A stretch of DNA of 64,000 bases from Nitrospinales bacterium (GTDB lineage Bacteria; Nitrospinota; Nitrospinia; Nitrospinales; VA-1). The stretch lies in assembly GCA_965262115.1 (NCBI GenBank), contig OZ253496.1, forward strand, positions 2,336,001 through 2,400,000, written 5' to 3'. Both the position numbers and the translations under genes were made by a program. The notes below the pieces were generated by a model. That model searched no databases. It saw only the letters and a program-made list of their open reading frames with translations, and was not told where the DNA came from. Below are positions 745 through 55,651 of this stretch, piece after piece (the first letter of the stretch is position 1; each line of letters opens with the position of its first letter).

Positions 745-787
745 GGCTGTGAACTTCATCATCATCCTTCATGCCCTGGAGGGGTAC
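745..787 (+). repeat. Copy of dispersed REP-like repeat (…TTCATGCCCYGRAGGGGTAC)
   Basis: GGCTGTGAACTTCATCATCATCCTTCATGCCCTGGAGGGGTAC; similar copies at about 33803, 41467, 49288, 52820, 55258, 55613. Confidence 0.75.
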
Positions 788-816
788 AATGCACACTGGG
801 TCCCGCGTCACGCTGG

Positions 817-1977
817 TTAGTCTGCGTGTTTTCGGAGAAATGTTGGAATATCAAAGTTTGCGGTCAGGCTTCCCGGATCCGGATTTTCTTCCTTAATGGA
901 AGAGGCCAGGGATTTTAAATGTTTATAAGAAGTTGGGCCTGAATCGTCATTGGGCATCGGGTCTCCCTCGACCACTTTTTTCAAGGCTGGTCTTTCTTCA
1001 GGTCTCATTGAGACCGTTTCCTCAAATCCTGTGGCGATGACGGTCACCCGCATCTCTCCTTCCATTTGTTTATCAATCACCGCTCCAAAAATGATGTGAG
1101 CGTCTTCATGGGCGTTTTCCTGAACCAGCATGGAAGCCTCATTGACTTCAACAAGGGTGAGGTCTTCACCGCCAGTGATGTTAATCAAAATGCCCTTTGC
1201 ACCATCGACCGTTGCTTCATCCAGCAAAGGACTGGAGATGGCTTTCTGTGCCGCTTCAACGGCCCGCATTTCTCCGGTGGCGGTCCCGCTGCCCATCAGA
1301 GCTTTGCCCATGCTGCCCATGATGCATTTAACATCGGCGAAGTCGAGGTTGATGAGACCGGGTATTACGATCAAGTCAGAGATGCTACAGACCGCTTGCT
1401 TCAAAACATCGTCGACCATGGAAAAGGCTCCGGTGAATGAAGTTTGTTTGCCGGCGTAACTGAGAAGCTTCTGGTTGGGGATGACAATCAAAGTGTCAAC
1501 CGCATCTTTCAGCTCCTGGATTCCTTCATCAGCCTGCCGCATTCGCCGTTTGCCCTCAAACGCAAAGGGTTTGGTGACTACGGCGACTGTCAAGGCTCCC
1601 ACTTCCTTGGCGATACGCGAAATGATGGGCGCGGCCCCGGTACCCGTTCCACCACCCATTCCAGCAGTGATGAAGACCATATCCGCTCCTTCCAGCATTT
1701 CGCGAATGCTGGCTTCACTCTCTTCGGCGGCATCCCTTCCGATTTCAGGATTGGAACCCGCACCAAGCCCGCGGGTCAATTCTCCGCCGATTTGAATTTT
1801 TCCAGAGCAGTCAGATTTCTCAAGCGTTTGCAGATCTGTGTTGGCGACAATAAACTCCACACCACGGATACTGTCCCGGACCATGGAGTTGACAGCATTA
1901 TTGCCCCCACCCCCTACACCCACGACCTTGATTGTTGCTGAATAATCGTTTTCGTTATCAAACTCTATTAAACTCAT
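817..1977 (-). CDS. ftsZ: Cell division GTPase FtsZ
   Basis: [19 protein letters not shown] tubulin signature, C-terminal DIPTFLRK. Confidence 0.99.
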
Positions 1978-1991
1978 TGTGTCCTCCGGTT

Positions 1992-3233
1992 TTAAAAAAA
2001 TTCATCTGCCCAATCTTTCATACGTGTAAAAATTTTGTCGAACAGGTTCCTCCCTTGAAGTTCCCGACTCGTTCCTGACTTAAACCTTCTGGATCCGTAC
2101 TGGATCAATCCTGTACAGGTGGCATACATGGGGTTGTTCACGACATCCATCAATCCTCCGAGACCAACGGGTGTTCCCACGCGCACAGTGGACTGGAAAA
2201 CATCTTCGGCCAATTCGGCCATGCCCTGCATGCTTGCTGCTCCGCCTGTCAGGACAACGCCCGAAGAAATGATTTCCCTGTAGCCGGATTCGCTGATTTC
2301 ATGATCCAGCAGTTCAAACATTTCCCGTGTTCTGGCTTCGATGATTTCGCTGAGAATCTGGCGTGGAACCGTTCGCGGCTCCCGTCCGCCGACACTTGGC
2401 GCTTCGATATTTTCTCCTTCCTGAACCAGGGGTGGGTAGGCGCATCCATAGGAGTGTTTGATTTTTTCCGCTTCCGCGTTTGGAGTGCGAAGTCCAATGG
2501 CGATATCATTTGTCATTTGAGCGCCGGCAATTGTCAAAACCGCTGTATGCTTGATGGCTCCCTGGTAAAAAATAGCCAGATCAGAGGTGCCACCACCTAT
2601 ATCAATCATCGCAACGCCGAGTTCTCTTTCATCCTGAGATAGAACAGATTCACTGGATGCCAGTTGCTCCAGCACAATGTCCTGAACTCCAAGACCTGCC
2701 TTGTTGACGCATTTGACAATATTTTGCGCGGAAGTTACGGCGGCGGTAACAATATGGACCTTGGCTTCAAGCCTTACTCCTGCCATTCCCAATGGAGTTT
2801 TGATCCCGTCTTGTCTATCGACAATATATTCCTGGGGAAGCACGTGGATGACTTCCCGGTCAAGAGGGATGGCAATGGCTTTGGCGGCTTCGATGACACG
2901 ATCAATATCCTTCTGTATGATTTCTTTTCCTTTGACCGCAATAATGCCATGACTGTTCATGCTGTTGATGTGACCTCCTGCAATACCTACAAAAACAGAA
3001 TCGATTTCGCATCCCGCCATCAACTCGGCTTCTTCAACAGCGCTTTTTATAGATTCCACGGTGCTGTCTATGTTTATAACCACGCCTTTACGCAAGCCCC
3101 GTGATGGATATTGACCCAGTCCGATGATATCTATTTTCTCATCATCAGCGACCTCGCCGATGATGCAACAGATTTTGGTCGTTCCAATATCCAGTCCGAC
3201 TATATAATTGCTTTTTTTGGCCATGCGTCCCAT
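1992..3233 (-). CDS. ftsA: Cell division protein FtsA
   Basis: [18 protein letters not shown]-terminal amphipathic helix; lies upstream of ftsZ. Confidence 0.98.
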
Positions 3234-3239
3234 CTCCTC

Positions 3240-4142
3240 CTAGTTGGTTTGCCGCTTCATGGATGTTGAGTTGATTGAAATTCGGTCCCGGACGACGACT
3301 TGATCTTTGAACGACAGGTCGATCATCTGGATCTTCATGTTGTCATCTTCCAGAGTGTCGAGAACAATCATGAATTTTTTTAACCCTTCCGTTAACGCTT
3401 CCATGGACATTTGAATTTGCAGATCGCGATTGTGAGTGAAAAATATGATTCTGGAGTTTCCCTTCAGCTCGGCCGTGTCCAACGGATTATTTTCAAAAAA
3501 AGAAAGTTTGTTAAAATAATGCATGGTCTTGAGGCTCTGTATGACCTTGTCTCCGGAAAAGTTTTCTGGTTTCGCCCCCTTGGAGGGTTGAACGATCAAC
3601 GGTAAATGCCGGTACTCTGGTTTTTCTTCAGAGAGGAGCACTCCAAAATTATCCATTAAAAATATTTTTTCAAATTTAACCCGGGCATAGGGCACACGCT
3701 CGGTCAATTCTATTTGAACCTCTTGGGGAAACTTTCTCTGGACAGATGCGGAAAGAATCCATGGGTGCTCCGCGAGTCTTTCTGAAGCTTTGGACAGATC
3801 GTAAGTAAACAGGTTTTCTCCATGAATAGGCCCCAGCCAGTCCAGAAGCTGGTTGTCCTGCAGGGAATGATGGCCACGGAACGAGACATCCGCGATTTTA
3901 AACCTGGGATCAGAAATCAAAAAACTATAGCTGACATAAATTAAATAAATGACCACCCCTGCCAGGAAAAGTTTTGAGGCCAGTTCAAATAATATTCTTG
4001 TCCATGAAAAATCACGGGCCGATGTTTTTGAGGGAGCTTTCTTGCTCAAGTCACCACCACGTCGATGCTTTTTCTTTCTTTCAGAGCGTAGGTCTGACCA
4101 CGCCATGGCGGGACTCTTTTGACCTGTGATTGCAAAATCCAT
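3240..4142 (-). CDS. ftsQ: Cell division protein FtsQ/DivIB
   Basis: Basic N-terminus, one TM helix, POTRA-like region (HPWILSASVQRKFP), dcw position; start may be a few codons downstream. Confidence 0.9.
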   Translation of the reverse strand: MDFAITGQKSPAMAWSDLRSERKKKHRRGGDLSKKAPSKTSARDFSWTRILFELASKLFLAGVVIYLIYVSYSFLISDPRFKIADVSFRGHHSLQDNQLLDWLGPIHGENLFTYDLSKASERLAEHPWILSASVQRKFPQEVQIELTERVPYARVKFEKIFLMDNFGVLLSEEKPEYRHLPLIVQPSKGAKPENFSGDKVIQSLKTMHYFNKLSFFENNPLDTAELKGNSRIIFFTHNRDLQIQMSMEALTEGLKKFMIVLDTLEDDNMKIQMIDLSFKDQVVVRDRISINSTSMKRQTN

Positions 4143-4144
4143 GA

Positions 4145-5062
4145 TTATTCCGTGTAATCCCTTTGAGCGGTTTTTAATATTTCAACGACTAAATCATCAA
4201 ACCCTAGTCCCATCTCCCGAGCCGCCATCGGTAGAAGGCTGGTGGGGGTCATTCCCGGGACGGTGTTCATCTCCAGGACCTGAGGGACTCCGTCGTTATC
4301 CAGAATGACATCCACGCGGGGGAAACCTCTTCCCCTTAACATCTGAAAAACCTGTTTTGCGGTTTGCCTGCACCGGCCTGTTTCGCTTTCCTCAAGGTTT
4401 GCCGGGCAGATGTATTCGGTTTTCCCCGAGGTGTATTTTGCCTCGTAGTCATAAAATCCGGACTTGGGACGGATGTGAACAATTGGCATGGGTGTCATTT
4501 CATTCATTCCAATTGCCAGAAGTTTTCCTTCAATAAACTTTTCTACAATCACTTCTTCAGAATAAGCGAAGGCGTCTTCCAATGCTGGTTTCCATTGGCT
4601 TTCGGTTTTAACGATGGTTACTCCCAAACTCGACCCTTGATTGGTTGGCTTGACGACAACGGGAAGATCCAAACCCCGGTCTGTTTTTTGGTTTTTATAG
4701 AACACTTCATAATCGGCTGTGGGTATTCTATGGAATTTTAAAATTTCCTTGGATTTTAATTTGTCATATGCCAAAGCACTGCCCATAACCCCTGACCCGG
4801 TGTAAGGAATTTTGAAATATTCAAGCAAACCTTGAACACATCCGTCTTCCCCAAAGGTCCCGTGCAGGGCAATAAAAGCCATGTCGATCGGATTCGACTT
4901 GAGGGTCTCCCCAATATTATGGTCAACGTGAATCGGCAAGGCGGTCAATCCTTTCCTGTTTATGGCCTCAAGGACCGAGTTTCCGGTGACGATTGAGACC
5001 TCTCGCTCGGGAGAAAGTCCTCCCATGAGCACTCCAATGGTTTTACCTTTTAAATTATCCAA
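4145..5062 (-). CDS. ddl: D-alanine--D-alanine ligase
   Basis: GGLSPEREVS, LHGTFGEDG, GSSLG, YDYEAKY, EMNTVPG. Confidence 0.97.
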   Translation of the reverse strand: MDNLKGKTIGVLMGGLSPEREVSIVTGNSVLEAINRKGLTALPIHVDHNIGETLKSNPIDMAFIALHGTFGEDGCVQGLLEYFKIPYTGSGVMGSALAYDKLKSKEILKFHRIPTADYEVFYKNQKTDRGLDLPVVVKPTNQGSSLGVTIVKTESQWKPALEDAFAYSEEVIVEKFIEGKLLAIGMNEMTPMPIVHIRPKSGFYDYEAKYTSGKTEYICPANLEESETGRCRQTAKQVFQMLRGRGFPRVDVILDNDGVPQVLEMNTVPGMTPTSLLPMAAREMGLGFDDLVVEILKTAQRDYTE

Positions 5063-5185
5063 AAGCCTTGTTACAAATCCCCTTTAAGCAGGTCCGCCCC
5101 GGCCCTTGGCCAAAAAGGCCGGAGAACAAAGGAAGGAGGGGTTACCTTTGTTTACGGACCAATTCCATGTTGTTATTTCTCCAGT

Positions 5186-6109
5186 TCACTCGCCTGCACT
5201 AACAATTTCGGTTTGCAGTTCAATGCCGGTTTTTTCTTTAACCTCTTTTTGGATGCTCTCAATCAAATGGGTCACATCTTTGGCGGTTGCGCTCCCTTTG
5301 TTGACAATGAAATTTGCATGCTTGATCGAAACCCCTGCATCGCCAACAGAAAGTCCTTTGAGTCCTATGGACTCGATCAACCTTCCCGCTGTGTCGCCTT
5401 CGGGATTTTTGAAGACAGAACCCGAGTTGGGCACCGTCAATGGCTGGGTCTGCGATCTTCTGGAGAGATGCCGATCCATCATGTTCTGGATTTCAGTGCG
5501 ATCTCCTTCTTCCAGTTCCAGCTCTGCTTCAATAATAATTCCGTCGTCATCAGGGAAAATGGTTTTTCTGTATTCGAAAGAAAGCTCTTCGCGTTTTAAA
5601 GTCTGAATTTTTCCATCCGAGATGATCCGGGTTACGCTACGAAGAACCTGGCTTGTTTCGGTTCCTTCCGCCCCGGCATTCATGACAATCGCACCTCCCA
5701 ATGATCCGGGAATACCTACCAAATGCTCGATTCCTGTCAAGGAATAGCGGGCCGCGTGTTTGGCTAGGTAAGACATTTTTACTCCGGCCCCCGATTTGAT
5801 GACTGCCCGACGGTTTCCGGTTTCCTTGCGGAAAAACAGAGGACGCTTAATTTCCTTGAAGCAATTTTTTAAAGAGATGACCACTCCCCGTATTCCCCGG
5901 TCTCCGACAAGCAAATTAGTGCCTTCGCCAAGAATGAAAAGAGGTTGGGAACCTTTATGCTTCAAAATCGTTTGAATGTCGCGAACATCCTCAGGGAAAA
6001 TCAATACATCCGCTGGGCCGCCAATTTGAATGGAAGTGTGGGGAGCCAGAATTTCGTTTTGCAGGACGGTGCCTTTTATTTTGTGTAACCAGGGAAAAGA
6101 ATAGCTCAT
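5186..6109 (-). CDS. murB: UDP-N-acetylenolpyruvoylglucosamine reductase
   Basis: IGGPAD, GIPGSLGGAIVMNAGA, NSGSVFKNP, HANFIVN; ORF is open to 6241, likely start about 6109. Confidence 0.96.
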   Translation of the reverse strand: MSYSFPWLHKIKGTVLQNEILAPHTSIQIGGPADVLIFPEDVRDIQTILKHKGSQPLFILGEGTNLLVGDRGIRGVVISLKNCFKEIKRPLFFRKETGNRRAVIKSGAGVKMSYLAKHAARYSLTGIEHLVGIPGSLGGAIVMNAGAEGTETSQVLRSVTRIISDGKIQTLKREELSFEYRKTIFPDDDGIIIEAELELEEGDRTEIQNMMDRHLSRRSQTQPLTVPNSGSVFKNPEGDTAGRLIESIGLKGLSVGDAGVSIKHANFIVNKGSATAKDVTHLIESIQKEVKEKTGIELQTEIVSAGE

Positions 6110-6269
6110 AGTTTTACTCTGATGAATTTTGTGACCCAGAACGGTTTTGGGGTACTCCATTTTGGTTTTGAGATTGAACTCCCTTCCCGTTCCAGAATGG
6201 GCAATGTGAATCAATCGGCGTTTCCAGGCTTCGTTGAGCATAGATGATGGTCCTTCCTATTGAAAGCGA

Positions 6270-7646
6270 TCAATCATTGAAGTGGGATGCGAGCTTGTGG
6301 CTCAACTCCCCGATATTCCCAGCGCCGAGAGCCATGACAATGTCTCCCGGTTTGAGAATCTTTTGCAAATGCGGGATCACGGACTCCGTGCCCCCGATGT
6401 ATTCCACGTGTTTATGTCCAAACTCTTTCACGCCTTCCGCGATCCTCTCGGAATGGACGCCTTCTATTGCATCTTCTCCAGCCGAATAAATATCAAGCAG
6501 AAGAAGTTGGTCGGCATCGTTGAAAGCGGAGAAAAAATTTTCCATGAGATATTTCGTGCGCGAGTAGCGATGCGGTTGAAATATGACGACAAGCCTTCGG
6601 TCTGGCCAGACATCTTTGGCGGTTGACAGGGTGGCCTGGATTTCTACCGGATGATGGCCATAATCATCAACGATTATCAATGACTCGGACTGTTTCAGAA
6701 TTTCAAACCTTCTCTGTACCCCGGTAAAGTTTTTCAGTGATTCGGCGATTGTCTGGAAATCCATATTCAATTCCATTCCGACAGCGATCGCCGCAAGGGT
6801 GTTACAAACATTGTGTCGTCCTAAAGCCCCGGACAATATTTTGCCCAACTTTTTATTTTGGTGGTAGACGGTGAAGTAGGTTTTCAATCCCTCCACCGAG
6901 ATATTTCGGGCGGTGTAATCGGCCTGGGATTTCAAACCGTAGGTAATGGTTCGTTTCTCAATCCCAGGAAGCAGGGATTGAAGATTGGCATCATCCAGGC
7001 ATAAGATCGCGGCACCATAGAATGGGATTTTGTTGAGAAACTGCAGGAATGTAGATTTCATATTCTGCATTGTCTGGTAAAAATCCATATGTTCTTCGTC
7101 CAGGGTCGTGACCACCGCCAGCGTAGGAGAAAGCTTGAGAAAAGAACCATCGCTCTCATCGGCTTCGGCAATGAGGTACTGGCTCTGGCCAAGTTTCGCG
7201 TGTCCGCCCATATTCTTGATTCTTCCGCCAATCACTACTGTTGGGTCAAGATTTCCAGCCGCCAGAACCGTGGCGACCAGTGAGGTTGTTGTGGTTTTCC
7301 CATGCGTACCCGCAATGGCGATACCGTGTTTCATCCGCATCAGTTCTGCCAGCATTTCGGCCCGGGGAATGACCGGTATGGATTGCTCTCGGGCGGCCTG
7401 CACCTCTACATTGTCGTCACTGATGGCGCTGGATACGACGACAATGTGTTTGCCCATGACATTTTCCGCGCTATGGTTGTGGCGGATGTCAGCTCCAAGA
7501 GTTTTCAAGTGGTCGGTCACCCGATTGGAAGAAGGATCGGAACCGCTCACCTCATAATCCTGATTGATTAAAACTTCAGCGATTCCGCTCATTCCCGACC
7601 CTCCGATCCCGATAAAATGGATCCGTTGTGTTTTTCCTAGAAACAT
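6270..7646 (-). CDS. murC: UDP-N-acetylmuramate--L-alanine ligase
   Basis: HFIGIGGSGMSG, GTHGKTTTT, EADESD, DDYGHHP, FQPHRYSR. Confidence 0.98.
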   Translation of the reverse strand: MFLGKTQRIHFIGIGGSGMSGIAEVLINQDYEVSGSDPSSNRVTDHLKTLGADIRHNHSAENVMGKHIVVVSSAISDDNVEVQAAREQSIPVIPRAEMLAELMRMKHGIAIAGTHGKTTTTSLVATVLAAGNLDPTVVIGGRIKNMGGHAKLGQSQYLIAEADESDGSFLKLSPTLAVVTTLDEEHMDFYQTMQNMKSTFLQFLNKIPFYGAAILCLDDANLQSLLPGIEKRTITYGLKSQADYTARNISVEGLKTYFTVYHQNKKLGKILSGALGRHNVCNTLAAIAVGMELNMDFQTIAESLKNFTGVQRRFEILKQSESLIIVDDYGHHPVEIQATLSTAKDVWPDRRLVVIFQPHRYSRTKYLMENFFSAFNDADQLLLLDIYSAGEDAIEGVHSERIAEGVKEFGHKHVEYIGGTESVIPHLQKILKPGDIVMALGAGNIGELSHKLASHFND

Positions 7647-8785
7647 GACAGAACATAATTCCCTTCTTTTTTTCCGGCCTGACCGGATGTCCGATTTGCG
7701 TCATCCAGTAAGTCCATGCATATCTGGCGAACTTTTTCCGTAGCGTCCCGGTTTCCTAACTGATAGCTGTTCTCTTCCATTTCCAACAATCGTTCGGGGT
7801 CTTCCATGGCACGAAGGATGGATTGGGCAATACGTTCTCCTGACAATTCATTGTCCAGCACCAATTCACCGGCATTGGCGGCATCCAGTACCTGGGCATT
7901 TTTTTCCTGATGATTGTGGGCCGCATGGGGATAAGGAATTAAGACGGATACTTTTCCGCAAGCGGTCACTTCTGCCAGAGTGGTTGCGCCAGCTCGACAG
8001 ATCACTAATGAGGCTTTACGATATTGTTCTGCAACGTCATCGATAAAGGGTCTGACATCATGGGAGAAACCACTGCCCTCATATTTACTTTTCACCATTT
8101 CATGATCGCTTTCACCGGTTTGATGGGTGATATGAATATTTTCCCGTTTGGAAACAAGAGACTCCAACGCTTCCACCATGGCAACATTAATGGAGTGCGC
8201 ACCTTGACTGCCTCCCAGGACCAGCACACGAAAGGGTCCTTGAGGATCTTTGGGAAACTCTTCCCGAGGCTGACAGAATTCATCGCGAATCATGTTGCCC
8301 GTCACTTCGACTTTATCCCTGGGGAAGAACTTTGCAGAGTCCTTGAACGAAACTGCCACCTTGTCTGCGATTTTTCCCAACCATTTATTGGTGAGGCCGG
8401 GAAAGGAGTTTTGTTCGTGGATAAGAATGGGCACTCGTAATATCCATGCAGAGAGAACCAGAGGACCTGATACATATCCGCCCACACCTACAACCAGGTC
8501 CGGCCGTTTGCTGATCAGGAAACACATGGACTGGGCCGTGCCTACCGGCAATTTGACCCATGACATCCAGCGGCTGAGGCGTTTTTTACCGAGTAAACCT
8601 GCTGAAAGAATGGTTTTCAACTCGAATCCTTCGCGCGGAAGAACTTTTGCTTCGATACCTTGTTGAGTTCCCACAAATGAAATTTCAATATTCATATCGT
8701 GCCTCATGAGAGCTTTCGCTAAAGCGATTCCTGGATAAAGGTGGCCTCCAGTACCGCCACCGGCTATGACAACTCTTTTTTGCAT
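7637..8785 (-). CDS. murG: Lipid II N-acetylglucosaminyltransferase
   Basis: GGGTGGHLYP, HEQN, GGSQGA, RAGATT. Confidence 0.98.
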   Translation of the reverse strand: MQKRVVIAGGGTGGHLYPGIALAKALMRHDMNIEISFVGTQQGIEAKVLPREGFELKTILSAGLLGKKRLSRWMSWVKLPVGTAQSMCFLISKRPDLVVGVGGYVSGPLVLSAWILRVPILIHEQNSFPGLTNKWLGKIADKVAVSFKDSAKFFPRDKVEVTGNMIRDEFCQPREEFPKDPQGPFRVLVLGGSQGAHSINVAMVEALESLVSKRENIHITHQTGESDHEMVKSKYEGSGFSHDVRPFIDDVAEQYRKASLVICRAGATTLAEVTACGKVSVLIPYPHAAHNHQEKNAQVLDAANAGELVLDNELSGERIAQSILRAMEDPERLLEMEENSYQLGNRDATEKVRQICMDLLDDANRTSGQAGKKEGNYVLSCF

Positions 8786-8789
8786 TGAA

Positions 8790-9896: not shown

Positions 9897-9902
9897 TATC
9901 CA

Positions 9903-11243: not shown

Positions 11244-11245
11244 CT

Positions 11246-33802: not shown

Positions 33803-33844
33803 GTGTTATGCCCCCTCATTAGCTTTCATGCCCCGAAGGGATAG
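33803..33844 (+). repeat. REP-like repeat copy
   Basis: GTGTTATGCCCCCTCATTAGCTTTCATGCCCCGAAGGGATAG; near-identical to the reverse complement of 49288-49323. Confidence 0.8.
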
Positions 33845-41466: not shown

Positions 41467-41526
41467 GTACCCCTCCAGGGCATGTGGGATGCCTTCTTCA
41501 TTTGTCTTCATGCCCGGAGCGGGTAA
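41467..41526. repeat. Inverted pair of REP-like repeat copies
   Basis: GTACCCCTCCAGGGCATG followed by TTCATGCCCGGAGCGGGTA. Confidence 0.7.
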
Positions 41527-41605
41527 AGACAAAGGTGAAATATCGCAGGAGAGAATGGGGTAAATAAATGTTTCCAGATTTAAAATCAACGGGGAGAACA
41601 ACCTT

Positions 41606-42503: not shown

Positions 42504-42898
42504 ATGAGTAAAAATACATCGTCGTATTGGAATGTTTTGAGCCCAGAAAACTCTGGTAAGTGGAAGCCAATTGAAGGTGCGGAGGGAATGCTGGAGCAAT
42601 TAACTTTGGCTATGGATGGTGTGACCGGTGACTATACGCGTTTAACTCGATTTAAAGCCGGGCGGATACAAAAAAATTTGGTGCCAAGTCGCATGATTAC
42701 CCTGAAGAGATCTATATAGTTTCTGGTCGTATTTATGATGAAGCTTTCGATATTTGGCTGGAAGCGGGTCATTTTGCAAGTCGTCCGCCAGGTGAAGTAC
42801 ATGGGCCATTTATTTGCGAAGAAGATTGTTTGGTTTTAGAAGTCTCGCATCCAAGCCAGTCGGTCAATGCCCACCCACCAGGCTCCTTGGGAGCATAA
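42504..42898 (+). CDS. Cupin (ChrR-like) protein, frameshifted at G run about 42660
   Basis: GDYTRLTRFKAG then, in a shifted frame, ADTKKFGAKSHDYPEEIYIVSG..ASRPPGEVHGPF. Confidence 0.8.
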
Positions 42899-42900
42899 AT

Positions 42901-43191
42901 CGTCATTGCGAGGAGGCAATGCTGACGAAGCAATCCAGAATGGAATGAAGCGACCCGCAATTTATATTATGACGAACAAACGGAATGGAACTCTTTATAC
43001 AGGCGTGACCAGCAACTTGGTTAAGCGCGTTTATGAGCATAAGAATGGGGTTGTGCCGGGTTTTCAAAAAAATATGTCTGAATATTATTGCGAGGAGACG
43101 AAGGAGTCCAGAATACCCTTGCAGGGCATGAAGGCTAATGAAGGAATATCACAAACCTGGATCGCCGCGCCGCTTCGCGGCTCGCGATGAC
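42901..43191 (+). pseudogene. Truncated GIY-YIG nuclease flanked by CGTCATTGCGAG…CTCGCGATGACG repeats
   Basis: MKRPAIYIMTNKRNGTLYTGVTSNLVKRVYEHK from 42945 breaks off at about 43075; inverted CGTC-type termini at 42901 and 43191. Confidence 0.8.
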
Positions 43192-43296
43192 GTAGAGGGG
43201 GTATTTTGGGCGATCGCGGTGCGTGTTATATTCCCGCCTCAGCCTTCACGCCCTGGAGTGGTATCACCGCCGCATTGCCACCGGCGGCCACGCGGG

Positions 43297-44493: not shown

Positions 44494-44592
44494 AAAAAAA
44501 TCCGGGAACAGAGAGTGTGGTCTGTTCCCGGACATCCGAGGAGGAGGTGTTCTTTGAGGGGTAACGAGCGCTACTCTCTTTACCCCTCATAT
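44494..44592 (-). ncRNA. Candidate small RNA: hairpin, CACCUCCUCCUC linker, terminator
   Basis: Stems TGAGGGGTAA/TTACCCCTCA (44555-44589) and 12-bp TCCGGGAACAGA/TCTGTTCCCGGA plus U7 tail on the minus strand. Confidence 0.5.
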
Positions 44593-44811
44593 TAAACAGT
44601 GTAACGGAAGATTCCGGGAGAACCCCAGCTTTTCCAAGTTAAGTTTTACCTTAAATTGAGTTTCTGGTTCAGGTGGGGGTACCCAGGAAATCGGATCCTT
44701 GAAGTCTAGTAAAAACAAAGAGATTGGGTTCGAGATTTCATCCCTGCTACGCAAACCCTACAGGGTTTGGCTCACCTTAAGATTAGGGCTCAAATTCTCC
44801 CAGAGTGGGTT

Positions 44812-46587: not shown

Positions 46588-46659
46588 TTGATTATTTGTA
46601 AGGGGTGATAAGGGGCCAAAGTTCAACAAGGTACTGAAAAGAAGGCAGACTTGCAAGCG

Positions 46660-47972: not shown

Positions 47973-48104
47973 TGGTTGTTTCCGGCGAGCCGCCGGGGGC
48001 AATTTGCAATGATTCGTTGAGCCGAGAATACGGTTGCTAGCAGTGATTAAGTTATTGCCAGTTGTACCCCTTCTACCCCTTCTACCCCTTTGTATGTTGT
48101 TCAT

Positions 48105-48312
48105 AAGGGGAATTTGTAGTAGTTGTACCTGTGAGCCCTGTGGGAAGCCGGTTTTGTGTTTTCCACAAGGCTCACAGGGTTTGATTCAGGGCACAATAGA
48201 TCGTTTACCCCTTGGGCTTTTAAGCCCGTCCCGAAGCGCAGATCGTTGTGTCCTATTTTGATTAACCCGAACAGTTGCCTGGGCCACTGAGCCCGCATCG
48301 GCAAGGCTGGGA
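48105..48312 (+). ncRNA. Bridge RNA (5' hairpin, target-binding loop, donor-binding loop); ends approximate
   Basis: Hairpin 48128-48178; target loop 48188-48254 with guides TTTACCCCT and CCCGAAG; donor loop about 48266-48311 with ACAGTTGC and GCAAGG. Confidence 0.85.
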
Positions 48313-48321
48313 GACCAAATT

Positions 48322-49272
48322 ATGAATCAGAAACCCCATTTTATTGGCATCGATATTTCTAAACTCCATCTGGATGTTGCTGACAGCATGACTCAAGAAA
48401 CCTGGCAAACCGCTAACAATGAAGAAGGGATTGCTGGTTTGGTCGAGAGTTTATCCGCCTTAAATCCTCCATTGATCGTTTTGGAAGCCACAGGCGGCTT
48501 AGAGATCCCGTTGGCTTCGGCCCTGGTTGCGGGTCGACTGCCAGTAGCCGTGGTCAACCCACGGCAAGTTCGTGATTTTGCCAAAGCCACCGGGAAACTG
48601 GCAAAAACCGATGTCATTGATTCTCTTGTGCTGGCCCATTTTGCCAAGGCCATACGTCCTGAGGTCAGGAAAATCAAAGACGAAGAATCTCTTGAACTCT
48701 CAGCTCTAGTGACACGCCGTCGCCAGTTGATCGAGATGCTGACCAAAGAAAAAACCCGTCTAAAACAAGCTCCAAAATGGATATGTAAAGACATTAAGGA
48801 GCATATCGAATCTCTTAAAAAACGCTTGCGAAAAATCGATGGCGACCTTTCCAGAACCATCAAAAACAGTTCTGCCTGGCGTGAGCACGACCAGATCATA
48901 CAAAGTGTTCCCGGTGCCGGTCCCGTTCTGGCTGTCAACCTCTTGGCCGGGGTTCCGGAACTTGGAGTTCTTAATCAGAAGCAAATCGCCGCCCTCATCG
49001 GTCTCGCTCCCCTCAATCGGGACAGCGGAAAGTTCCGGGGCCGCCGGTGTATCTGGGGCGGCCGCGCCAATGTGCGTGCCGCTTTATACATGGCCGCCGT
49101 CACTGCCATGCAGCATAATCCCGTGATTCGTACCTTTTACACACGCCTCATCGAAAAGGGCAAACCCTTTAAAGTTGCCATTACCGCATGCATGAGAAAG
49201 TTATTAACGATCATCAATACCATGATCAAAACAAAAACACTCTGGAATGAAAATCTCATTGCCAGCACTTGA
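48322..49272 (+). CDS. IS110-family DEDD recombinase/transposase
   Basis: GIDISK (D), LEATGG (E), KTDVIDS (DxxD), SVPGAG, GLAPLNRDSGKF (catalytic Ser), RAALYMAA. Confidence 0.97.
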   Translation: MNQKPHFIGIDISKLHLDVADSMTQETWQTANNEEGIAGLVESLSALNPPLIVLEATGGLEIPLASALVAGRLPVAVVNPRQVRDFAKATGKLAKTDVIDSLVLAHFAKAIRPEVRKIKDEESLELSALVTRRRQLIEMLTKEKTRLKQAPKWICKDIKEHIESLKKRLRKIDGDLSRTIKNSSAWREHDQIIQSVPGAGPVLAVNLLAGVPELGVLNQKQIAALIGLAPLNRDSGKFRGRRCIWGGRANVRAALYMAAVTAMQHNPVIRTFYTRLIEKGKPFKVAITACMRKLLTIINTMIKTKTLWNENLIAST

Positions 49273-49287
49273 CATTTAACACAGTTG

Positions 49288-49358
49288 CTTCGGGGCATGA
49301 AAGCCAATGAAGAGGGCATAACAGGGGCATGAAACTTTTGGAAGAGGATATCACAGCC
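49288..49358 (-). repeat. Two tandem REP-like repeat copies; the first is interrupted by the IS110
   Basis: CTTCGGGGCATGAAAGCCAATGAAGAGGGCATAACA followed by GGGGCATGAAACTTTTGGAAGAGGATATCACAGCC. Confidence 0.85.
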
Positions 49359-49417
49359 CCTTGCCTTCGGCAGTCGCGTTAGCGTTACTGCCGCGCTGCC
49401 ACTGGCGGCCTCGCCGA

Positions 49418-49912
49418 TTAGAGCCAACCGTTTTCTGTGGCGATATTGTTATAGTCGTGCCAGTTTTGCGCGTCTGCGTTTTCGAGCATATATTCATCCA
49501 TAGCCAGTACTAATGGATGGCCCTTGTTGACAAAGGATTGCACCGTCGGAAACCGCAAAACAAAAGTGGTGACTGCGGCTTTACCCAAAGTCATGATATT
49601 CGGATCTTTTGCTATAGCCTTGAGGACTTCTTCAGCATTTTCGGGAGTGATCGACTGGAACAATTCCGCTGTTTTTTCTTCCAGTTCAGGATGATCATCG
49701 CAAGCGACGGCGGCGAGCATCTGCAACTCAAGAATCTTTTGATAGTCGGCTTCGTCGTATTCCCCTTCCATACGACCTTCTTCCCAGGCCGATCCCTCCA
49801 AATTACGTTCCCCCGGGCTGTCTCTACGTTCAGACGTTTCTGAAAATGCCAGATTTGCTTCATCCAGCAGGATTTTGGCTTTAACTTCCGCGCTGGTTTC
49901 TGTGTTGGACAT
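49418..49912 (-). CDS. Acidic hypothetical protein
   Basis: 164-aa ORF with protein-like composition; GGAG upstream. Confidence 0.75.
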   Translation of the reverse strand: MSNTETSAEVKAKILLDEANLAFSETSERRDSPGERNLEGSAWEEGRMEGEYDEADYQKILELQMLAAVACDDHPELEEKTAELFQSITPENAEEVLKAIAKDPNIMTLGKAAVTTFVLRFPTVQSFVNKGHPLVLAMDEYMLENADAQNWHDYNNIATENGWL

Positions 49913-50115
49913 GACTTGTTTCGTGCTCCATTTTAACTATGGGTTGATACCGGGGGTCACTGCCGAGTCTGGCTCCCCTGGGTATTTTAGGAAACTTTCC
50001 CGATTTTCGCCCGATTTTGATTAAAGGTATAGATGGCAATATGTTAGCATTAACCCGATAGATTCCAAAAAATTAAAAGCGATTCACCGAAAGAACTGCG
50101 TTTAAAGGAACCTGT

Positions 50116-51939
50116 ATGAAAAAGGTCATGTTGATATTTCCGCCGGAATGGGTGCCTACCGCCCCTTATTTGGCCCTGCCGAGCCTCGCCGCGGTTCTGC
50201 GTAAAAACGGCATAGAGACCGTGCTCAAGGACATCAATGTGGAGATGTTTGACCACTTCTTCACGTCCGGATTCCTGTTGTTTGTCAAAAGCAAAATACA
50301 AGCCCGGTTGAAAACGCTGATACAAAAAGAGTACGGAGAAGCGTTGAGTCCGGAAGACGCCGAGCTGAAACAAATGCTCAGCGACTACCAGCATATCGAC
50401 CTCGACCACCATATCAACAAAGTGGCTCGCGCCAAGAGGATCATGCGTGGGCCGGAATTTTATGAGATCGAGAAAGCCGAATGGGCGCTCAACGCTTTCA
50501 GGGAAGTGATGGAATATATTTCTGTCTGCTACTTTCCTGCCAGCATCAATTTTTATCCGGTCGAGAGCAACCTCAACGTGTACCGGCCCTGGGTTTCTGA
50601 AGACCTTTTGAAAGTGCCGCACGACAAGACTGTCAATGTTTATGCCGACATCTGCCGACAGTTGGTGTTGCGGTCGATTAAAAAAGAACAACCCGATGTC
50701 GTTGGCATTTCCATCGGCACCCCGGTGCAACTGATGGCAGGCATAACCTTTGCCACTTTGATCAAGGAGGCTTATCCCGACATCCATGTGACCGTGGGGG
50801 GCAACATCATCACCCGGCTCAAGGGTGAATTTGCGAAAAAGCCGCATTTCTTCGGCAAGGTATTCGACTCGATGATCACCTATGAGGGCGAGCACGCTTT
50901 GGTCTGGCTGGTGGAAGCGCTATCAGGCAAACGAAAAATGTCCGAAGTTTCCAACCTCATCTACAAAGATGAGGAAGGCAATATGCATGTTAACGACACC
51001 TATCAAGAACAGGTCACCGAACTGCCACCGCCAGATTTTGACGGCATGCCCTGGGAAAAATATTTTTCGCCGGAAAAACTCGTGCCCTATTTGGGCACGC
51101 GTGGCTGTTATTGGGGGAAGTGTACGTTCTGCGATCACGGTGCCGGTTATATCGACCAGTTCCGCGCCAAGCACGCCGACCAGATCGTCGATGAACTGGA
51201 ATACCTGAAAAATAAACTCAACACCAAACATTTCATGTTCACCGATGAGTCGTTTCCGCCAGCCCTGTTCATCAAACTGCCGCCGATGATGGTCGAACGT
51301 GAGCTCTATATTTACTGGACCACGCTGATCCGGTTTGAATCGCAACTGCTGGAGCCGAAGTTGTGGGACATGGCGCACAAGTCAGGTTGCCGGTCATTGT
51401 ATTACGGGCTGGAGTCGGCCAACGAACGCATCATCAAATTGGTTAAGAAAGATACCGATATAGAAGCGGCAAAAATCAACCTGACACAGGCCAAGCGGGT
51501 GGGTATCTGGAGCCACGTGATGTGTTTTTACGGATTCCCCTCAGAAACCGAAGCGGAGGCTGAAGACACGCGGCAGTTCCTGCTGCAGAATCAGGATATG
51601 ATTCCATCGGTCGAGATGTATTTTTTCGTGCTCTATAAAAACGCGCCGGTGATGTTCCAGAAGGATGAGTACAAGATTACAGTGAAGGATAACCCCGAGC
51701 ACGACCTGGCTTTGGATTATTATTACACTCCGGAGTCGGGCCAGACCACCGAAGAGGCGATGACGCGTTACGAAAACTTTTATCGTGACGATTTTGATCC
51801 ATGGGCAATGCGCATCAATGCCCGTGAACATGTGTTCCTCTACATCACGCATTTCGGCACCAGCGATTTGCCCCACCTTTACGTGAAAAACGATCCCGAA
51901 TCCCACGAACGCAGCATGGCTCCTGAACTGATGCTGTAG
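50116..51939 (+). CDS. Cobalamin-binding radical SAM protein
   Basis: N-terminal FPP..PYLA, B12 domain PDVVGISI..VGGN, RGCYWGKCTFC, GLESAN. Confidence 0.93.
   Translation: MKKVMLIFPPEWVPTAPYLALPSLAAVLRKNGIETVLKDINVEMFDHFFTSGFLLFVKSKIQARLKTLIQKEYGEALSPEDAELKQMLSDYQHIDLDHHINKVARAKRIMRGPEFYEIEKAEWALNAFREVMEYISVCYFPASINFYPVESNLNVYRPWVSEDLLKVPHDKTVNVYADICRQLVLRSIKKEQPDVVGISIGTPVQLMAGITFATLIKEAYPDIHVTVGGNIITRLKGEFAKKPHFFGKVFDSMITYEGEHALVWLVEALSGKRKMSEVSNLIYKDEEGNMHVNDTYQEQVTELPPPDFDGMPWEKYFSPEKLVPYLGTRGCYWGKCTFCDHGAGYIDQFRAKHADQIVDELEYLKNKLNTKHFMFTDESFPPALFIKLPPMMVERELYIYWTTLIRFESQLLEPKLWDMAHKSGCRSLYYGLESANERIIKLVKKDTDIEAAKINLTQAKRVGIWSHVMCFYGFPSETEAEAEDTRQFLLQNQDMIPSVEMYFFVLYKNAPVMFQKDEYKITVKDNPEHDLALDYYYTPESGQTTEEAMTRYENFYRDDFDPWAMRINAREHVFLYITHFGTSDLPHLYVKNDPESHERSMAPELML
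51835..51939 (+). repeat. About 100-bp direct repeat, copy 1 (3' end of radical SAM gene)
   Basis: Matches 52600-52702. Confidence 0.9.
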
Positions 51940-52028
51940 GTCGGGTCCGCCCGACAGTGAATAGGCCTTTACTCCCCAAGTCCAGTCTTGCAGCCACCCG
52001 AATTAGATTGATTTAATGATATGTTATG

Positions 52029-52045
52029 ATAATATAGTATATTAT
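52029..52045. promoter_or_regulatory. Palindromic operator of the TA operon
   Basis: ATAATATA-G-TATATTAT perfect inverted repeat overlapping TATAAT-like boxes upstream of the antitoxin. Confidence 0.6.
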
Positions 52046-52072
52046 AATGAATAAATTGGTCGGGGGTATTTC

Positions 52073-52321
52073 ATGGCGAAGGCATCAGCAAGAATTTCAT
52101 TTGTAACTGCGAAAGGGAAGCGCAAAAAGCTAGACCAGATAGCGGGAGCTTTTGGGACCAACCTTAGTTCTGTTATCAATGATGCGCTGGACCAATATAT
52201 AGATTTGCACCAATGGCAGTTGGCTCATATTGAAAAGGGAGTTAAGGCAGCTAAAAAAGGCGACTTTGCGTCCGATAAAGAAGCGGACACGTTTTTCAAC
52301 AAATATGGGCGAACTTCATGA
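52073..52321 (+). CDS. CopG/RHH-type antitoxin
   Basis: LDQIA..S.VINDALDQY..WQLAHIEKGVKAA..GDFAS. Confidence 0.85.
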   Translation: MAKASARISFVTAKGKRKKLDQIAGAFGTNLSSVINDALDQYIDLHQWQLAHIEKGVKAAKKGDFASDKEADTFFNKYGRTS

Positions 52322-52599
52322 GGGTTAGTTGGACCCGGCAGGCGTTGGATGACCTGCGCCATCTGCATGAGTACATCTCCGAAGAGAGTCCTCAGGCCGC
52401 AGGCGAGATGGTTTCACGCATCCATCAAGCGGCTACTGTCAATCTGAAAGAGCACCCCAGAATGGGTAAAAAAGGACGCGTTCCCGGCACCCGCGAACTT
52501 GTGCTTGCCGGTACGCCTTATCTGCTGGTATATGTTTTGGCAGAGCCTGAAATCCACATTGTCACTGTCCTCCATGCTTCCCGCCGCTGGCCTGATTAA
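52318..52599 (+). CDS. RelE/ParE-family toxin
   Basis: WTRQALDDL..YI..P.AA, GRVPGTRELV..TPY, VLHASRRWP; ATGA overlap with the antitoxin. Confidence 0.92.
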   Translation: MRVSWTRQALDDLRHLHEYISEESPQAAGEMVSRIHQAATVNLKEHPRMGKKGRVPGTRELVLAGTPYLLVYVLAEPEIHIVTVLHASRRWPD

Positions 52600-52702
52600 T
52601 TCCTGCTTACACATTTCGGCACCATCGATCTGCCGCACCTCTTATGTAAAAAACGATCCTGAATCCCACGAACGCAGCATGGCCCCCGAACTGATGCTCT
52701 AG
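52600..52702 (+). pseudogene. Degenerate duplicate of the radical SAM 3' end (direct repeat copy 2)
   Basis: Encodes YVKNDPESHERSMAPELML*, with indels in its 5' part. Confidence 0.9.
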
Positions 52703-52734
52703 CGGCTAGGCGCCGCAGCCAGTGAGCCCCTGAA

Positions 52735-53194
52735 GTCATGTCATGCTGAGGCCCTCGAAGCATCCTCCTTTGTCATCCTGAGCCTTCCGTGATATCCCCC
52801 AACCTATAACATCATGAGCGTGTGATATTTCTTCCATCGGTTCGTGCCCCGAAGGGGTACTCACGCAGGTGTCCTAACCGCTAGACGAAGGGGCCGGAAT
52901 AACCAACAGGAGTGGATCGCCGCGCCGTTTTTACCGGCTCGCTATGACGAACACCTCGACCCTTCGACGTGCTCAGGGTGACAAGCTAACCCACTCAATC
53001 CCATCGAACAAGACGTATTCCTATTGTTCGAGTTATCAAGGGGAGGTTTAAAAGTCCACACCCCTCCCAGCCTCCCCTCATGATAGGGGAGGAGTTTTTT
53101 TTATCTGTGTGAATCTGTGGTTAAAAAAGGTTTTCACTGGCCCCACGCTTTGGCAGTCGCGTTAGCGTTTCTGCCCACGTTGGCCCTACGCCTA
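52735..53194. repeat. Intergenic mosaic of several palindromic repeat families
   Basis: GTCATGCTGAG/GTCATCCTGAG…CTCAGGGTGAC, GTGCCCCGAAGGGGTAC, TGGATCGCCGCGCCG…CTCGCTATGACG, CCCCTCCCAGCCTCCCC…GGGGAGG, CACTGGCCCCACGC. Confidence 0.75.
52866..52895 (-). pseudogene. 5' half of a tRNA (Glu-like), truncated at the anticodon loop
   Basis: GGCCCCT TC GTCTAGCGGTTAGGAC A CCTGC = acceptor 5' strand, D-arm and anticodon 5' stem; no T-arm follows. Confidence 0.65.
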
Positions 53195-53198
53195 GTAG

Positions 53199-55175
53199 CT
53201 AGTTGTCGCGGCGGAAGCCGCGCATTTGTGGCAGGGTGCCATCGAAGTCGCTTGTTGCTTGATCTGAGGCGGGTTGGATTTCTTTCTTCTCTTCCGGAGC
53301 TTTTTTCTCCAACAGAAAAACGCAGAGGTCGGGGTGGACCTGATTTTCAGGGCACATTTTCAGGTGCTGCCGGAAAAACGGCATGTTGTGGATCGGGTCG
53401 TTATAAAGCGTATCCAACCAGTAATGCTCGAACAGTCCGCCTAACGGGCGCGGTCCGACCAGGTAGAGGAACCCGCCGGGCAGGAGCGCTCCGGTCAAGG
53501 CTTTCAACATGTTTTCGCAGGCTTCGCGGTCGGGATGATACATGAACGGAATCCATTTAAAGATCAGCCCGTATTGGGTGCTGTAGGCGTGGGCGATATG
53601 CTCTGCTTCCGGCAGGAACGAAACTTTTTCTAGATTGTCCAGCTGGTCGCGTGACGCAGCGTAGTTCCACAACAATTGCGCGTTTTTCTGTGCAAATTCC
53701 GCATCGCTGAACAGCACGGTGTATTCGCGCTCTTTGGTGCAGTCGATGCAACCAGCCAGCACGGTGTCGAAAGTGTGGATGAGCACCTTGTCAATTTTTT
53801 CCAGCCGATGCGGCATAGCCGGTGTCATTTCCATATAGTAAAAAATCTGATCGAGCACCATGGGTTGCAGCGCGGATTCTTCAATGTCGGCGGCGCCTTC
53901 TGGATAAAATGGAACCGTGTATTGCACCTTGACCGGATCGACCACCGGCGGTTCGCCGTTGAAGAACCATTTCCAGGTGAAGGGATACTTGGCTGGCGAT
54001 TTGGTCGAATAGGTCTGTGGGCGCAGGTTCCATTTTGGCTCAAAAGCAATCTCTCTTCCGCGTTCGCCTTCGAGCAGGGTGAACGATTGCGTGCCGACTC
54101 TGACTTCCCGCTCGATGGGGGGTTTTTTCACGCCTCCACAATTGGTGAAAGGGAAAGTGATGGGATCGTCGTAAGCCGTAACTTTGTAAAGGTAGCCGTC
54201 CTGCGCGGTGATGACCACCTTCTGGATGTCGCTGAAATAGCGTACTGGCGCGTGTTTTTGCGCTGTCCAGGTGATCTCGTGCGAAGTCATAGGTTCCATA
54301 AATATTTTTTTGATGTCTTTGCCTTCCGGTCCCTGCGGTTCAAAAAACGCCGAGAAAATGTTGAACGCCTCTTTCGAGGGGTAAGTGTGAAGGCCGCGAT
54401 ACTTCAAGGGCGGGAGTTGTTTTTCCCGCGACTGGTCGTTATAGATGCCCCAGATGAACTCGAACACAGCCCCGCCGGTTCCCGCCAAAGTGGACTGGAA
54501 CAGCTCAACGACAGGAATCAGGTCGATTTGGGCCCAGTTGACCTGAAACATGAAACTGATGAACAGGGATTTGTCGAACGTGCCATCGTGCAGGGCGTAG
54601 AGTCCGTCTTTAGTGAGCTGGATATTGTATTTTCCGTCTCCCTGATGAACCATGTGTTCATCATCATAAAAATATTTCACTTCGGAGAATGGCACCCGCC
54701 AGGCTTCGGCGGCTTTTTCGCGCAGGTTATCGAGCGACATTTTTTCCCAACCTTCGTGAGTGCTGATATCGATTTGTGTCTGGAAGGTTTTGGCGCGGGG
54801 TTTGATGCCGACCCATTGCCGGTTGTCGAGTTGCATCCTGGCCAGTGCCAGTTGCTGGGCTCCTGTTTTATCGTCCTGGGTCCACAGGGCTTCGTGCAGA
54901 GGATTTCCTTCCGGATCGGTGCAGAGAAAACGCCTGCCTTCTTCGTTGTAGAAGACGATATGCCCGGTCGGGGTGACGATGATACGGGTATTGGCGATGT
55001 TGGCAGACCCGTTTTCGAACAGCAGGGTGCTTCCATCCTGTTCCTGGGATTCCAGATTGGGGACTTTCTTTTCCAAATCTGTGGCAAATTCAAGATTACC
55101 GGCGAAGATCAATGAACCTTCCCGGGTCAATGCATGGATCAGGTTGTCTGTTTTTATCACGTGAGTTCCTCCCAC
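53199..55175 (-). CDS. Large hypothetical protein
   Basis: 658-aa ORF; C-terminus loosely resembles a methyltransferase fold (ALLPGGFLYLVGP); start uncertain. Confidence 0.8.
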   Translation of the reverse strand: MGGTHVIKTDNLIHALTREGSLIFAGNLEFATDLEKKVPNLESQEQDGSTLLFENGSANIANTRIIVTPTGHIVFYNEEGRRFLCTDPEGNPLHEALWTQDDKTGAQQLALARMQLDNRQWVGIKPRAKTFQTQIDISTHEGWEKMSLDNLREKAAEAWRVPFSEVKYFYDDEHMVHQGDGKYNIQLTKDGLYALHDGTFDKSLFISFMFQVNWAQIDLIPVVELFQSTLAGTGGAVFEFIWGIYNDQSREKQLPPLKYRGLHTYPSKEAFNIFSAFFEPQGPEGKDIKKIFMEPMTSHEITWTAQKHAPVRYFSDIQKVVITAQDGYLYKVTAYDDPITFPFTNCGGVKKPPIEREVRVGTQSFTLLEGERGREIAFEPKWNLRPQTYSTKSPAKYPFTWKWFFNGEPPVVDPVKVQYTVPFYPEGAADIEESALQPMVLDQIFYYMEMTPAMPHRLEKIDKVLIHTFDTVLAGCIDCTKEREYTVLFSDAEFAQKNAQLLWNYAASRDQLDNLEKVSFLPEAEHIAHAYSTQYGLIFKWIPFMYHPDREACENMLKALTGALLPGGFLYLVGPRPLGGLFEHYWLDTLYNDPIHNMPFFRQHLKMCPENQVHPDLCVFLLEKKAPEEKKEIQPASDQATSDFDGTLPQMRGFRRDN

Positions 55176-55225
55176 TCCGCGTGGGGCGAATTAGCAATCC
55201 ACTCCGCGTGGAGCGAATTAGCAAT
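55172..55225 (+). repeat. 27-bp tandem duplication
   Basis: CCACTCCGCGTGGGGCGAATTAGCAAT / CCACTCCGCGTGGAGCGAATTAGCAAT. Confidence 0.85.
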
Positions 55226-55257
55226 AGCATTCTCTGGCTAGCAACAAGTTGTCGCGG

Positions 55258-55651
55258 TTGTTATATTCTTCCTAAACTTTCATGCCCCGTAGGGGTATTT
55301 ATGAGTTCTCACCCAATTCTCTCCGGGCATGGCCAGCGCCAAAAGAGGGCAGTTTATAATAATGCTGGCACTCCCGCAAGGTAAAGTTGCTACGGGGCCT
55401 CAATTATCCGGAAATCCAGCGCCCACTCGGCGTACCCCTTAAGGGCGAGACCTTTGCATAAGTCAAAAAATCGAAGAATCGAGATGCTTCGAGATACCCC
55501 TACGGGGCAAGAAGGCAAAGGTCGAATATTCACTAGCTCAGCATGACAATACTGGGCCATTTTGTCATTCTGAGGAGCTATTGCAACGAAGAATCTTGGG
55601 TTATGCAAAGCTCTCCTTCAGGGCATGAAGGTTGATGAGGGGTCATAACAT
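55258..55651. repeat. Cluster of REP-like repeat copies
   Basis: TTCATGCCCCGTAGGGGTA (about 55279), GTACCCCTTAAGGGC (about 55432), ATACCCCTACGGGGC (about 55494), CCTTCAGGGCATGAAGGTTGATGAGGGGTCATAACA (about 55615). Confidence 0.75.

Follow-up and report, generated by a model that had tools for sequence, protein, structure and literature searches.

An IS110 element in the hairpin of a dispersed 39-41 bp repeat of a Nitrospina-type bacterium, and the likely mobility of that repeat

The IS110 element and the repeat around it

This study concerns an insertion sequence (IS) of the IS110 type and the short dispersed repeat in which it sits, in a window of 64,000 nucleotides (positions 2,336,001 to 2,400,000 of contig OZ253496.1) from the genome of a marine Nitrospina-type bacterium. 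The genome (2.68 Mb, 94% complete) is called G000 below, and coordinates are positions within the window unless they are marked G000:C1. Between its two CT cores the element occupies 48088..49289 on the plus strand, and it encodes a 316-aa recombinase (48322..49272, +) with the domains PF01548 and PF02371, whose catalytic D-E-D-D and Ser residues are found in the motifs GID (D11), LEATG (E55), KTDVID (D98, D101) and RDSG (S235). The sequences on its two sides, 48065-48089 and 49288-49355, together make up a nested pair of repeat copies, with the IS110 sitting in the inner one. On the left, two tandem left halves of host copies, TACCCCTTC (48065..48082, +), are followed by the left target TACCC and the CT core of the occupied copy (48083..48089, +), with an extra T after the core at 48090. 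On the right, the CT core and the right part of the occupied inner copy (49288..49323, +) run into the right part of the host copy whose loop received the inner one (49324..49355, +). The tandem TACCCCTTC at 48065-48090 varies in length; a contig of run X1 has one 9-mer more than that of run X3 and the window.

The repeat unit is 39-41 bp long and reads, from the hairpin end, TACCC-N-T-N-C-N-GGGCAYGAA, a variable purine-rich stretch, and ATMACR (TACCC...ATCACA), with a GNA-loop hairpin at one end of the unit only. A hidden Markov model profile built from 76 copies found 370 matches of at least 12 bits in G000 and none in the reversed-genome control; all seeds came from G000, and those copies match by construction. 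A 19-base core has 66 exact matches across the genome. The hairpin is the only structurally conserved part, its loop-closing pair being C-G in 95, G-C in 40 and T-A in 11 of the distinct sequences (146/172); the mid-to-3' columns of the alignment, which are misaligned by length variation, were left out. The repeat is mostly extragenic, with 26 of the 370 matches within crude open reading frames (ORFs) of at least 150 aa, though such ORFs span 71% of G000. Most copies are singletons (186 of 266 clusters), 24 of the 61 pairs are inverted, and the strand of the repeat shows no bias relative to the neighbouring genes (66 vs 65).

Outside G000, the repeat is almost restricted to Nitrospinota. A strict pattern is present in 23 of 36 other genomes of the same family and in none of 24 genomes from other families of the order; among 80 genome loci listed after a scan of 17 of 64 parts, 79 were titled Nitrospinota or below and one Marinimicrobia. 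One or two copies each are also seen in two contigs of a viral collection (L346 and L347). Rfam matched nothing in the window. No description of the repeat was found in the literature, where subscription papers, ISfinder or the Durrant 2024 supplements could list the IS or its target.

The left end of the IS folds into a target loop (fold z=-2.4), and 11 of the 29 consensus pairs show more than one standard pair type across 11 left ends. The predicted target-binding loop carries the left target guide TTTACCCCT (48204..48212, +) and the right target guide CCCGAAG (48230..48236, +), which is 7 nt long and the complement of CTTCGGG. Further along lie the left donor guide ACAGTTGCC (48271..48279, +), which matches the right end of the element, ACAGTTG-CT, at 8/9 positions and tracks an A/G change in relatives, and a candidate right donor guide (48295..48305, +), whose match is confined to its final CAAG, the complement of CTTG at the left end; no consensus fold was recovered for the donor loop. 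A TTGACA -35 box is found at 49269..49274 (+), and joining of the ends would place it 17 nt before TG-TATGTT, making a putative circle-junction promoter. Such a junction promoter, and this arrangement of the target loop at the left end, are described for IS621 (PMC11208160). A promoter scan of the integrated form of the IS gave nothing relevant, and no IS circle or clean empty-site joint was seen among the run contigs, a source unable to show absence.

The genome has 24 IS110 copies longer than 1.1 kb plus fragments, and 15 copies have a full frame. In runs X1 and X3 (one study, possibly of the source sample), reads cover the IS about 20 times as deeply as its flanks, which fits about 24 copies. 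There is a CT core at both IS junctions, and filled and empty copies of the repeat borne by an IS3-like element differ by the IS and one CT only. Two copies form a diverged subfamily (87% identity), and a 10-bp deletion is common to 6 of 23 aligned copies; because each of the six is bordered by an IS3 arm on one or both sides, dead copies, it is suggested, spread as passengers or by conversion. Two rearranged copies were also noted, a partial tandem duplication of IS110 (G000:C1:2144612-2145979) and an inverted IS3/IS110 remnant (G000:C1:2518288-2519443).

Guides and insertion sites

All 26 right IS ends in G000 read ACAGTTG-CT and abut the repeat hairpin, followed by GGGGC. Reading across the junction gives CTTCGGG at 23 of them, CTGCGGG at two and CTCGGGG at one, with 20 distinct right flanks. 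The left ends follow ACCCC(C)T in 25 of 26 cases, the exception being an internal tandem junction. On the side of the guides, TTTACCCCT is found in 23 of 23 full IS copies and CCCGAAG in 21; the other two have CCCGCAG, and these are the two members of the diverged subfamily, both sitting in TGC loops. The empty copies of the repeat comprise 41 of the TAC variant, 37 GTGCC, 35 TGC, 31 GTTCC, 30 TCC and 28 TTC. For the main IS family, 18 distinct TTC sites are occupied and 28 are empty, and of the TAC, TGC and TCC copies none is occupied and 106 are empty (Fisher P=3e-11, with IS copies that are not fully independent).

The guides change from one relative to the next, and the flanks change with them. 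The target-loop pattern was found in 10 of 120 genomes of the phylum, with 13 guide loci listed. The guides follow CTGAGC-type hairpin repeats in G041, G047 and G050, CCCCCT repeats in G027, G052 and G078, and the repeat studied here in G013, G016 and G019. Seven elements were scored at both flanks, and guide and flank agree at 64 of the 70 positions outside the core, against a permutation mean of 36 (P=0.0002); G013 and single-flank loci were left out, and related elements are not independent. Sister IS lineages have guides for the TGC, TCC and CCAGG variants of the repeat. In another relative, G015, 18 of 19 right ends lead into the repeat, each with a flank of its own; its own guide was not recovered, and its loops are 13 TTC, 3 TTT, 2 TCC and 1 TTA.

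The sequence-only reading of this DNA had taken the repeat for the programmed target of the IS110, and this is borne out by the genome-wide enrichment, by right ends that lie in the repeat without exception and by guides that covary with flanks; the motif search and copy count that it proposed are the ones given above. It had also supposed that the loop variants may be poor targets, which is right for the main family in G000 and has to be narrowed to the guide in hand, given the sister guides; the check across related genomes that it called for gave the 6 of 19 ends in non-TTC loops in G015. From such data we judge it very probable that the IS inserts by bridge-RNA recombination at the CT core.

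There is one further observation on the guide loci. In L373, L378 and L366 (G050 and G041), 11-12 nt (TCRGGGCATGA) of the conserved part of the repeat recur in the 5' arm of the target stem of the bridge RNA, which may be chance; these elements target repeats other than the one studied here.

Insertion, footprint and surroundings of the repeat

The repeat itself is found precisely inserted, without target duplication, into its own copies, into other repeats and into an IS3. The IS3 case is the plainest. An IS3-like element of G000 holds a 41-bp copy at ATCTT^CTCG; among the 17 left arms of this element there is no empty junction, with seven holding the 41-bp copy alone and ten leading into IS110. 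Six homologous IS3 loci of relatives (among 8 of 10 loci listed, two being G000's own) read ATCTT-CTC with nothing inserted, and hence the copy entered the IS3 without duplication or loss. The IS3-like element (e.g. C1:695239-696529) is a curious host in its own right: in every copy with the junction the repeat comes right after the A6G slippery run and breaks the -1 OrfAB fusion, and the element is multicopy despite this. Several IS3 ends abut repeat ends.

In the window, a host copy at 41468..41547 (-; TACCC on the plus strand) is split after base 17 by an inner 41-bp copy in the opposite orientation (41485..41525, +), again without duplication; the host is unbroken in the G007 orthologue, which shows a 41-base gap. 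More broadly, in 400-kb samples of G007, G013 and G019 (91-95% identity), 102 of 142 comparisons of orthologous sites are without the copy and 22 have it, and 28 listed comparisons include gaps of 39-41 bases, the length of one unit, and of 79-82, that of two. At the IS site of the window, the flanks are adjacent in the same three genomes, with neither repeat nor IS between them. An unbroken look-alike exists elsewhere for 117 of 158 repeat sites. Nested copies are found at host bases 9 (14 sites), 20-21 (3) and 30 (7) and, inverted, at 17 (8); copies also form head-to-tail runs. Over 150 flank classes (395 sites) there is a weak target motif, with W at -2, S at +2 and C at +5, and bases outside TACCC are not conserved. 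From these patterns the repeat is likely a non-autonomous, tiny mobile element. It is not a miniature inverted-repeat transposable element: its ends TACCC and ATCACA are not inverted, and no target duplication of at least 4 bp was found at 224 repeat sites. The idea that the variable middle of the repeat guides its own target choice was dropped as well (best z 4.1 against a null 95th percentile of 4.13, 99 clusters).

Filled sites often carry a mark beyond the unit. Of 30 cases in which one copy lies within the loop of another, 19 have GGCTCA or CGCTCA as the next host bases, and 16 different units are found as the inner copy; none of 310 intact hairpins reads so (P 9e-24). CT stands in place of GG at bases +3/+4 beyond the inserted repeat, and +1 keeps the host letter. 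A second host repeat, unrelated to the first, has TGCTGCC at 6 of 8 filled sites and at 0 of 121 empty ones (P 5e-9; both P values treat sites as independent), and the change is seen in three of four orthologous filled/empty pairs. The insertion site in IS3 shows no CT change. The cause of the footprint may be either insertion chemistry or short-tract co-conversion.

As to what moves the repeat, the sequence-only reading had looked to a RAYT (REP-associated tyrosine transposase, REP being a repetitive extragenic palindromic sequence), another HUH enzyme or some other mobilising gene flanked by the repeat; none was found in G000, nor beside the repeat in relatives. The 18 ORFs with the repeat on both sides were, by eye, housekeeping genes, IS pieces or spurious frames. 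When the 5633 peptides of 613 regions beside the repeat were clustered, IS110, IS3, translated repeats and small groups of orthologues or paralogues emerged, and no mover was seen among the top 45 clusters inspected by eye. A reverse transcriptase has a broken match in G000 and is present in 3 of 5 genomes. PF04986 had no match in five genomes, a result made uninformative by controls that were also unmatched.

Genes for DUF559 and GIY-YIG nucleases were considered as mobilisers and set aside, since they are flanked by other hairpin families. Small GIY-YIG genes (window 42800-43200 and G000:C1:2573000-2573700) are flanked, in the fashion of REPtrons, by CGTC-like hairpin repeats, GTCRTTGCGAGG...GAAGCAATCC; the copy in the window matches the first 38 profile positions only and looks internally deleted. 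Nothing was found in the literature joining GIY-YIG with REPs, and nothing relevant on Nitrospina together with IS110. Seven DUF559 genes of about 120 aa (G000:C1:377385, 660936, 735444, 1034378, 1582297, 1589978 and 2140509) are each bracketed by inverted CCCCTCCC...GGGAGGGG hairpin repeats in differing contexts, like mobile nuclease cassettes. In relatives, long Y1 transposases of about 325 aa (L355-L361) are bordered by short TTGACCCC repeats in tandem and by inverted ends, in a TIRYT-like arrangement.

At every place named by the sequence-only reading there is indeed a repeat, with coordinates that are corrected here, and two copies had been missed: one at 43114..43153 (-), within another hairpin repeat at the 3' end of the truncated GIY-YIG ORF, and a degenerate one of 12 bits at 43224..43263 (+). 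The copy at 748..786 (+; TGTGA...GGGGTA on the plus strand) is a TCC-loop/AGG variant, and that at 33804..33843 (+) has a TTC loop and a changed end. The empty TTC-loop copy at 52821..52859 (+) matches the guides at 12 of 14 positions; the perfect empty site once placed at 52844-52860 holds as a 12-mer at 52848-52859 only, since its two outer left bases are AG against TT in the guide. TAC loops are found in the copies at 55259..55297 (+) and 55495..55534 (-), the latter splitting a GAGATGCTTCGA...AGCTCAGCATGAC hairpin repeat, and the copy at 55611..55650 (-) has a degenerate hairpin end. The TACCCCTTAAGG at 55436 has no profile match and is at best a degenerate piece of the repeat. Elsewhere in the window, at 51847-52702, two diverged copies of the 3' end of the radical-SAM gene enclose a putative toxin-antitoxin pair of the CopG/ParE type (52074-52600; named by the look of its sequence).

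Mechanism, rival explanations and meaning

The element is an IS110 member, and it resembles IS621 and ISCro4 in its two-domain DEDD and serine recombinase (phmmer E 6e-30 and 9e-33; PDB 8WT6-9 and 9T56) and (PMC11208160) in its long left end with target loop and candidate donor loop, its CT core, its putative junction promoter and its insertion into a repeat. It differs from them in its target, in its 7-nt right guide, and in a guide that reads across the hairpin loop and resolves loop variants; longer right guides are noted for some orthologues in the same paper. ISPpu9, ISPpu10, ISPa11, ISRm19 and other REP-targeting IS are alike in having IS copies confined to one repeat family with a hairpin in the target (PMC1525189, 10.64898/2026.03.19.712850). 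In ISPpu10 a 5' extension pairs with the left target to make the stem, whereas here the left and right target arms form the stem and the core lies at the loop edge. Insertion of IS elements into REPs has long been known (PMC1525189), and that of an IS110 into a REP-like repeat is a clean further example; the target here is, besides, likely a unit that moves singly. The proposed parallel with IS621 and the E. coli REPs stands for the targeting by an IS110, and has to be extended by the mobility of the repeat itself.

Like GTAG REPs and their doublets, the REPINs, and like the CGTC repeats, the repeat is short, extragenic, hairpin-bearing, lineage-restricted and present in hundreds of copies (PMC3116915, PMC3733652), and the CGTC repeats are also without a known dedicated enzyme (PMC3733652). 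The earlier term REP-like is apt to this extent; the repeat differs from GTAG REPs and REPINs in having no GTAG tag and no linked RAYT, in being mostly singletons and in its precise nested insertion, and the single-unit gaps in orthologues argue that the inverted doublet is not the mobile unit here. Its [TC]GT[GT]AT end resembles the CGTC tag, but no 8-9 bp stem follows, and the sole conserved stem lies at the other end. The small dispersed repeats (SDRs) of Nostocaceae, reportedly treated by Elhai in 2008, offer another likeness. SDRs are units of 21-27 nt that also nest in their own copies and are not known to have a mover. Precise insertion into other repeats and polymorphism between relatives are SDR-like features found here, and PMC4390886 and PMC5861425 portray the SDRs as very small mobile repeats inserting precisely into another repeat. 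The present repeat differs in its 39-41 bp, its phylum, its terminal GNA hairpin, its CT footprint and its role as target of an IS110. In serving as an IS target it behaves as a REP does, and its mobility as a unit resembles that of the Nostoc SDRs.

With a probability of about 0.7, we consider that the IS110 lies in the hairpin of this dispersed repeat likely through bridge-RNA pairing, and that the repeat is likely a non-autonomous mobile unit, for which the predicted mover is a single-strand transposase that reads hairpins and acts in trans. The IS would circularise, and the junction promoter would drive the left-end RNA, whose left guide would pair with NNTACCC-CT and whose 7-nt right guide with CT-TCGGG. 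Since the guides would read across the loop, the variable base of the GNA loop would decide which copies are targets, and sister IS lineages would retune the guide base that matches it. In parallel, an end-specific enzyme reading the terminal hairpin would insert the unit where the target motif is weakly matched or defined, for the most part inside other hairpin repeats; short-tract gene conversion would afterwards carry filled sites to similar host repeats, and this conversion, or the insertion chemistry itself, would write CT at +3/+4. As the repeat spreads, the IS would gain new and safe intergenic targets, and IS110 may also ride in the IS3 that picked up one repeat copy. Single-strand transposition by hairpin-reading enzymes is established for IS200/IS605 and RAYT. 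A mover of the HUH type is the weakest step, to which we give somewhat less than an even chance; the fixed ends, the conserved GNA-capped terminal hairpin, the missing duplication and the preference for other hairpins would fit it.

Several observations weigh against this account. No Y1 transposase (PF01797) was found in G000 or G013, and the 10 Y1 loci found in 9 of 41 genomes were without the repeat in the loci examined. Most of the 102 orthologues without the copy are remodelled intergenic regions and not clean empty sites, and a 2-bp match across the junction is slightly over chance (22 vs 13.7). The bridge-RNA guide is known here from sequence alone; its two outer left bases match in just 4 of 26 left ends, and the two copies with the CCCGCAG guide have 229 nt of right flank in common and are probably one event. 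In G016 (guide CCCGGAG), one of five right ends matches exactly and four of five when G-T wobble is allowed, and three of five IS ends lie outside the repeat. The IS110 copies in G000 are also mosaic, their left and right flanks are shuffled and their IS3 flanks are unmatched; the independent insertions are thus fewer than the copies, and both the mosaicism and the IS3 flanks indicate that copies have recombined with each other.

This mosaicism is at home in a different explanation, in which the IS targeting is as described and the spread of the repeat is due solely to gene conversion (homing) from one host repeat to another of its kind. Cuts by the small GIY-YIG or DUF559 nucleases might set it off, and there would be no dedicated transposase. 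G000 has 7 GIY-YIG and 9 DUF559 matches, several of them bordered by hairpin families in which the unit is found; subtypes of the unit correspond to classes of host site, and the CT change resembles co-conversion. The insertion at the IS3 coding junction, however, took place without flanking homology, 395 sites fall into 150 flank classes, and +1 keeps the host letter where +3/+4 change, and on balance we regard this explanation as unlikely. The IS recombinase itself might also be thought to make or move the repeat, for example by half-match recombination, of which events are reported for IS621, or from a bridge-RNA piece. The footprint CT equals the IS core, and 3 of 10 tested related left ends have the 11-12 nt stretch of the repeat (P 0.007-0.03 each). 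Yet the ends of the repeat are unlike the donor ACAGTTG-CT-TGTAT and its two junctions have no core in common; G013 has 106 strict repeat matches with one broken IS copy, and G031 and G022 have 16 strict matches each with no close transposase or guide match among those listed, all of which leaves the recombinase a very improbable mover. Lastly, the IS could be drawn by the hairpin structure or by protein-DNA reading, with the guide match secondary. All 28 perfect target 12-mers in G000 lie inside a repeat, which confounds sequence and structure in this genome, and ISPpu10 uses the target stem-loop as an extra gate (10.64898/2026.03.19.712850). Against it, the hairpin-equivalent TAC, TGC, TCC and GTNCC variants are unoccupied, guides change along with flanks across relatives, and the G016 ends in non-repeat DNA match the G016 guide; we hold this, too, to be improbable.

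Returning to bridge-RNA targeting of a repeat moved in trans, one may tentatively, and with some doubt, go a step further and regard the repeat as a member of an undescribed class of elements of about 40 bp, moved as single units by a hairpin-reading enzyme without duplication and rewriting GG to CT at +3/+4, which IS110 lineages track by retuning one guide base. If true, repeat, IS110 and IS3 would form a three-tier parasite chain. Any enzyme proposed as the mover must reproduce the CT footprint, the fixed positions of nested copies and the weak target motif, and the movement of SDR- and CGTC-type repeats becomes more testable thereby. For the IS110 family, these genomes hold a natural reprogramming series, in which one recombinase clade has guides for three repeat families that are unrelated to each other and, inside a single genome, for loop variants that differ by one base, while hundreds of near-targets that stay empty give a read-out of specificity; the 316-aa recombinase with its native 7-nt right guide would be a candidate tool.

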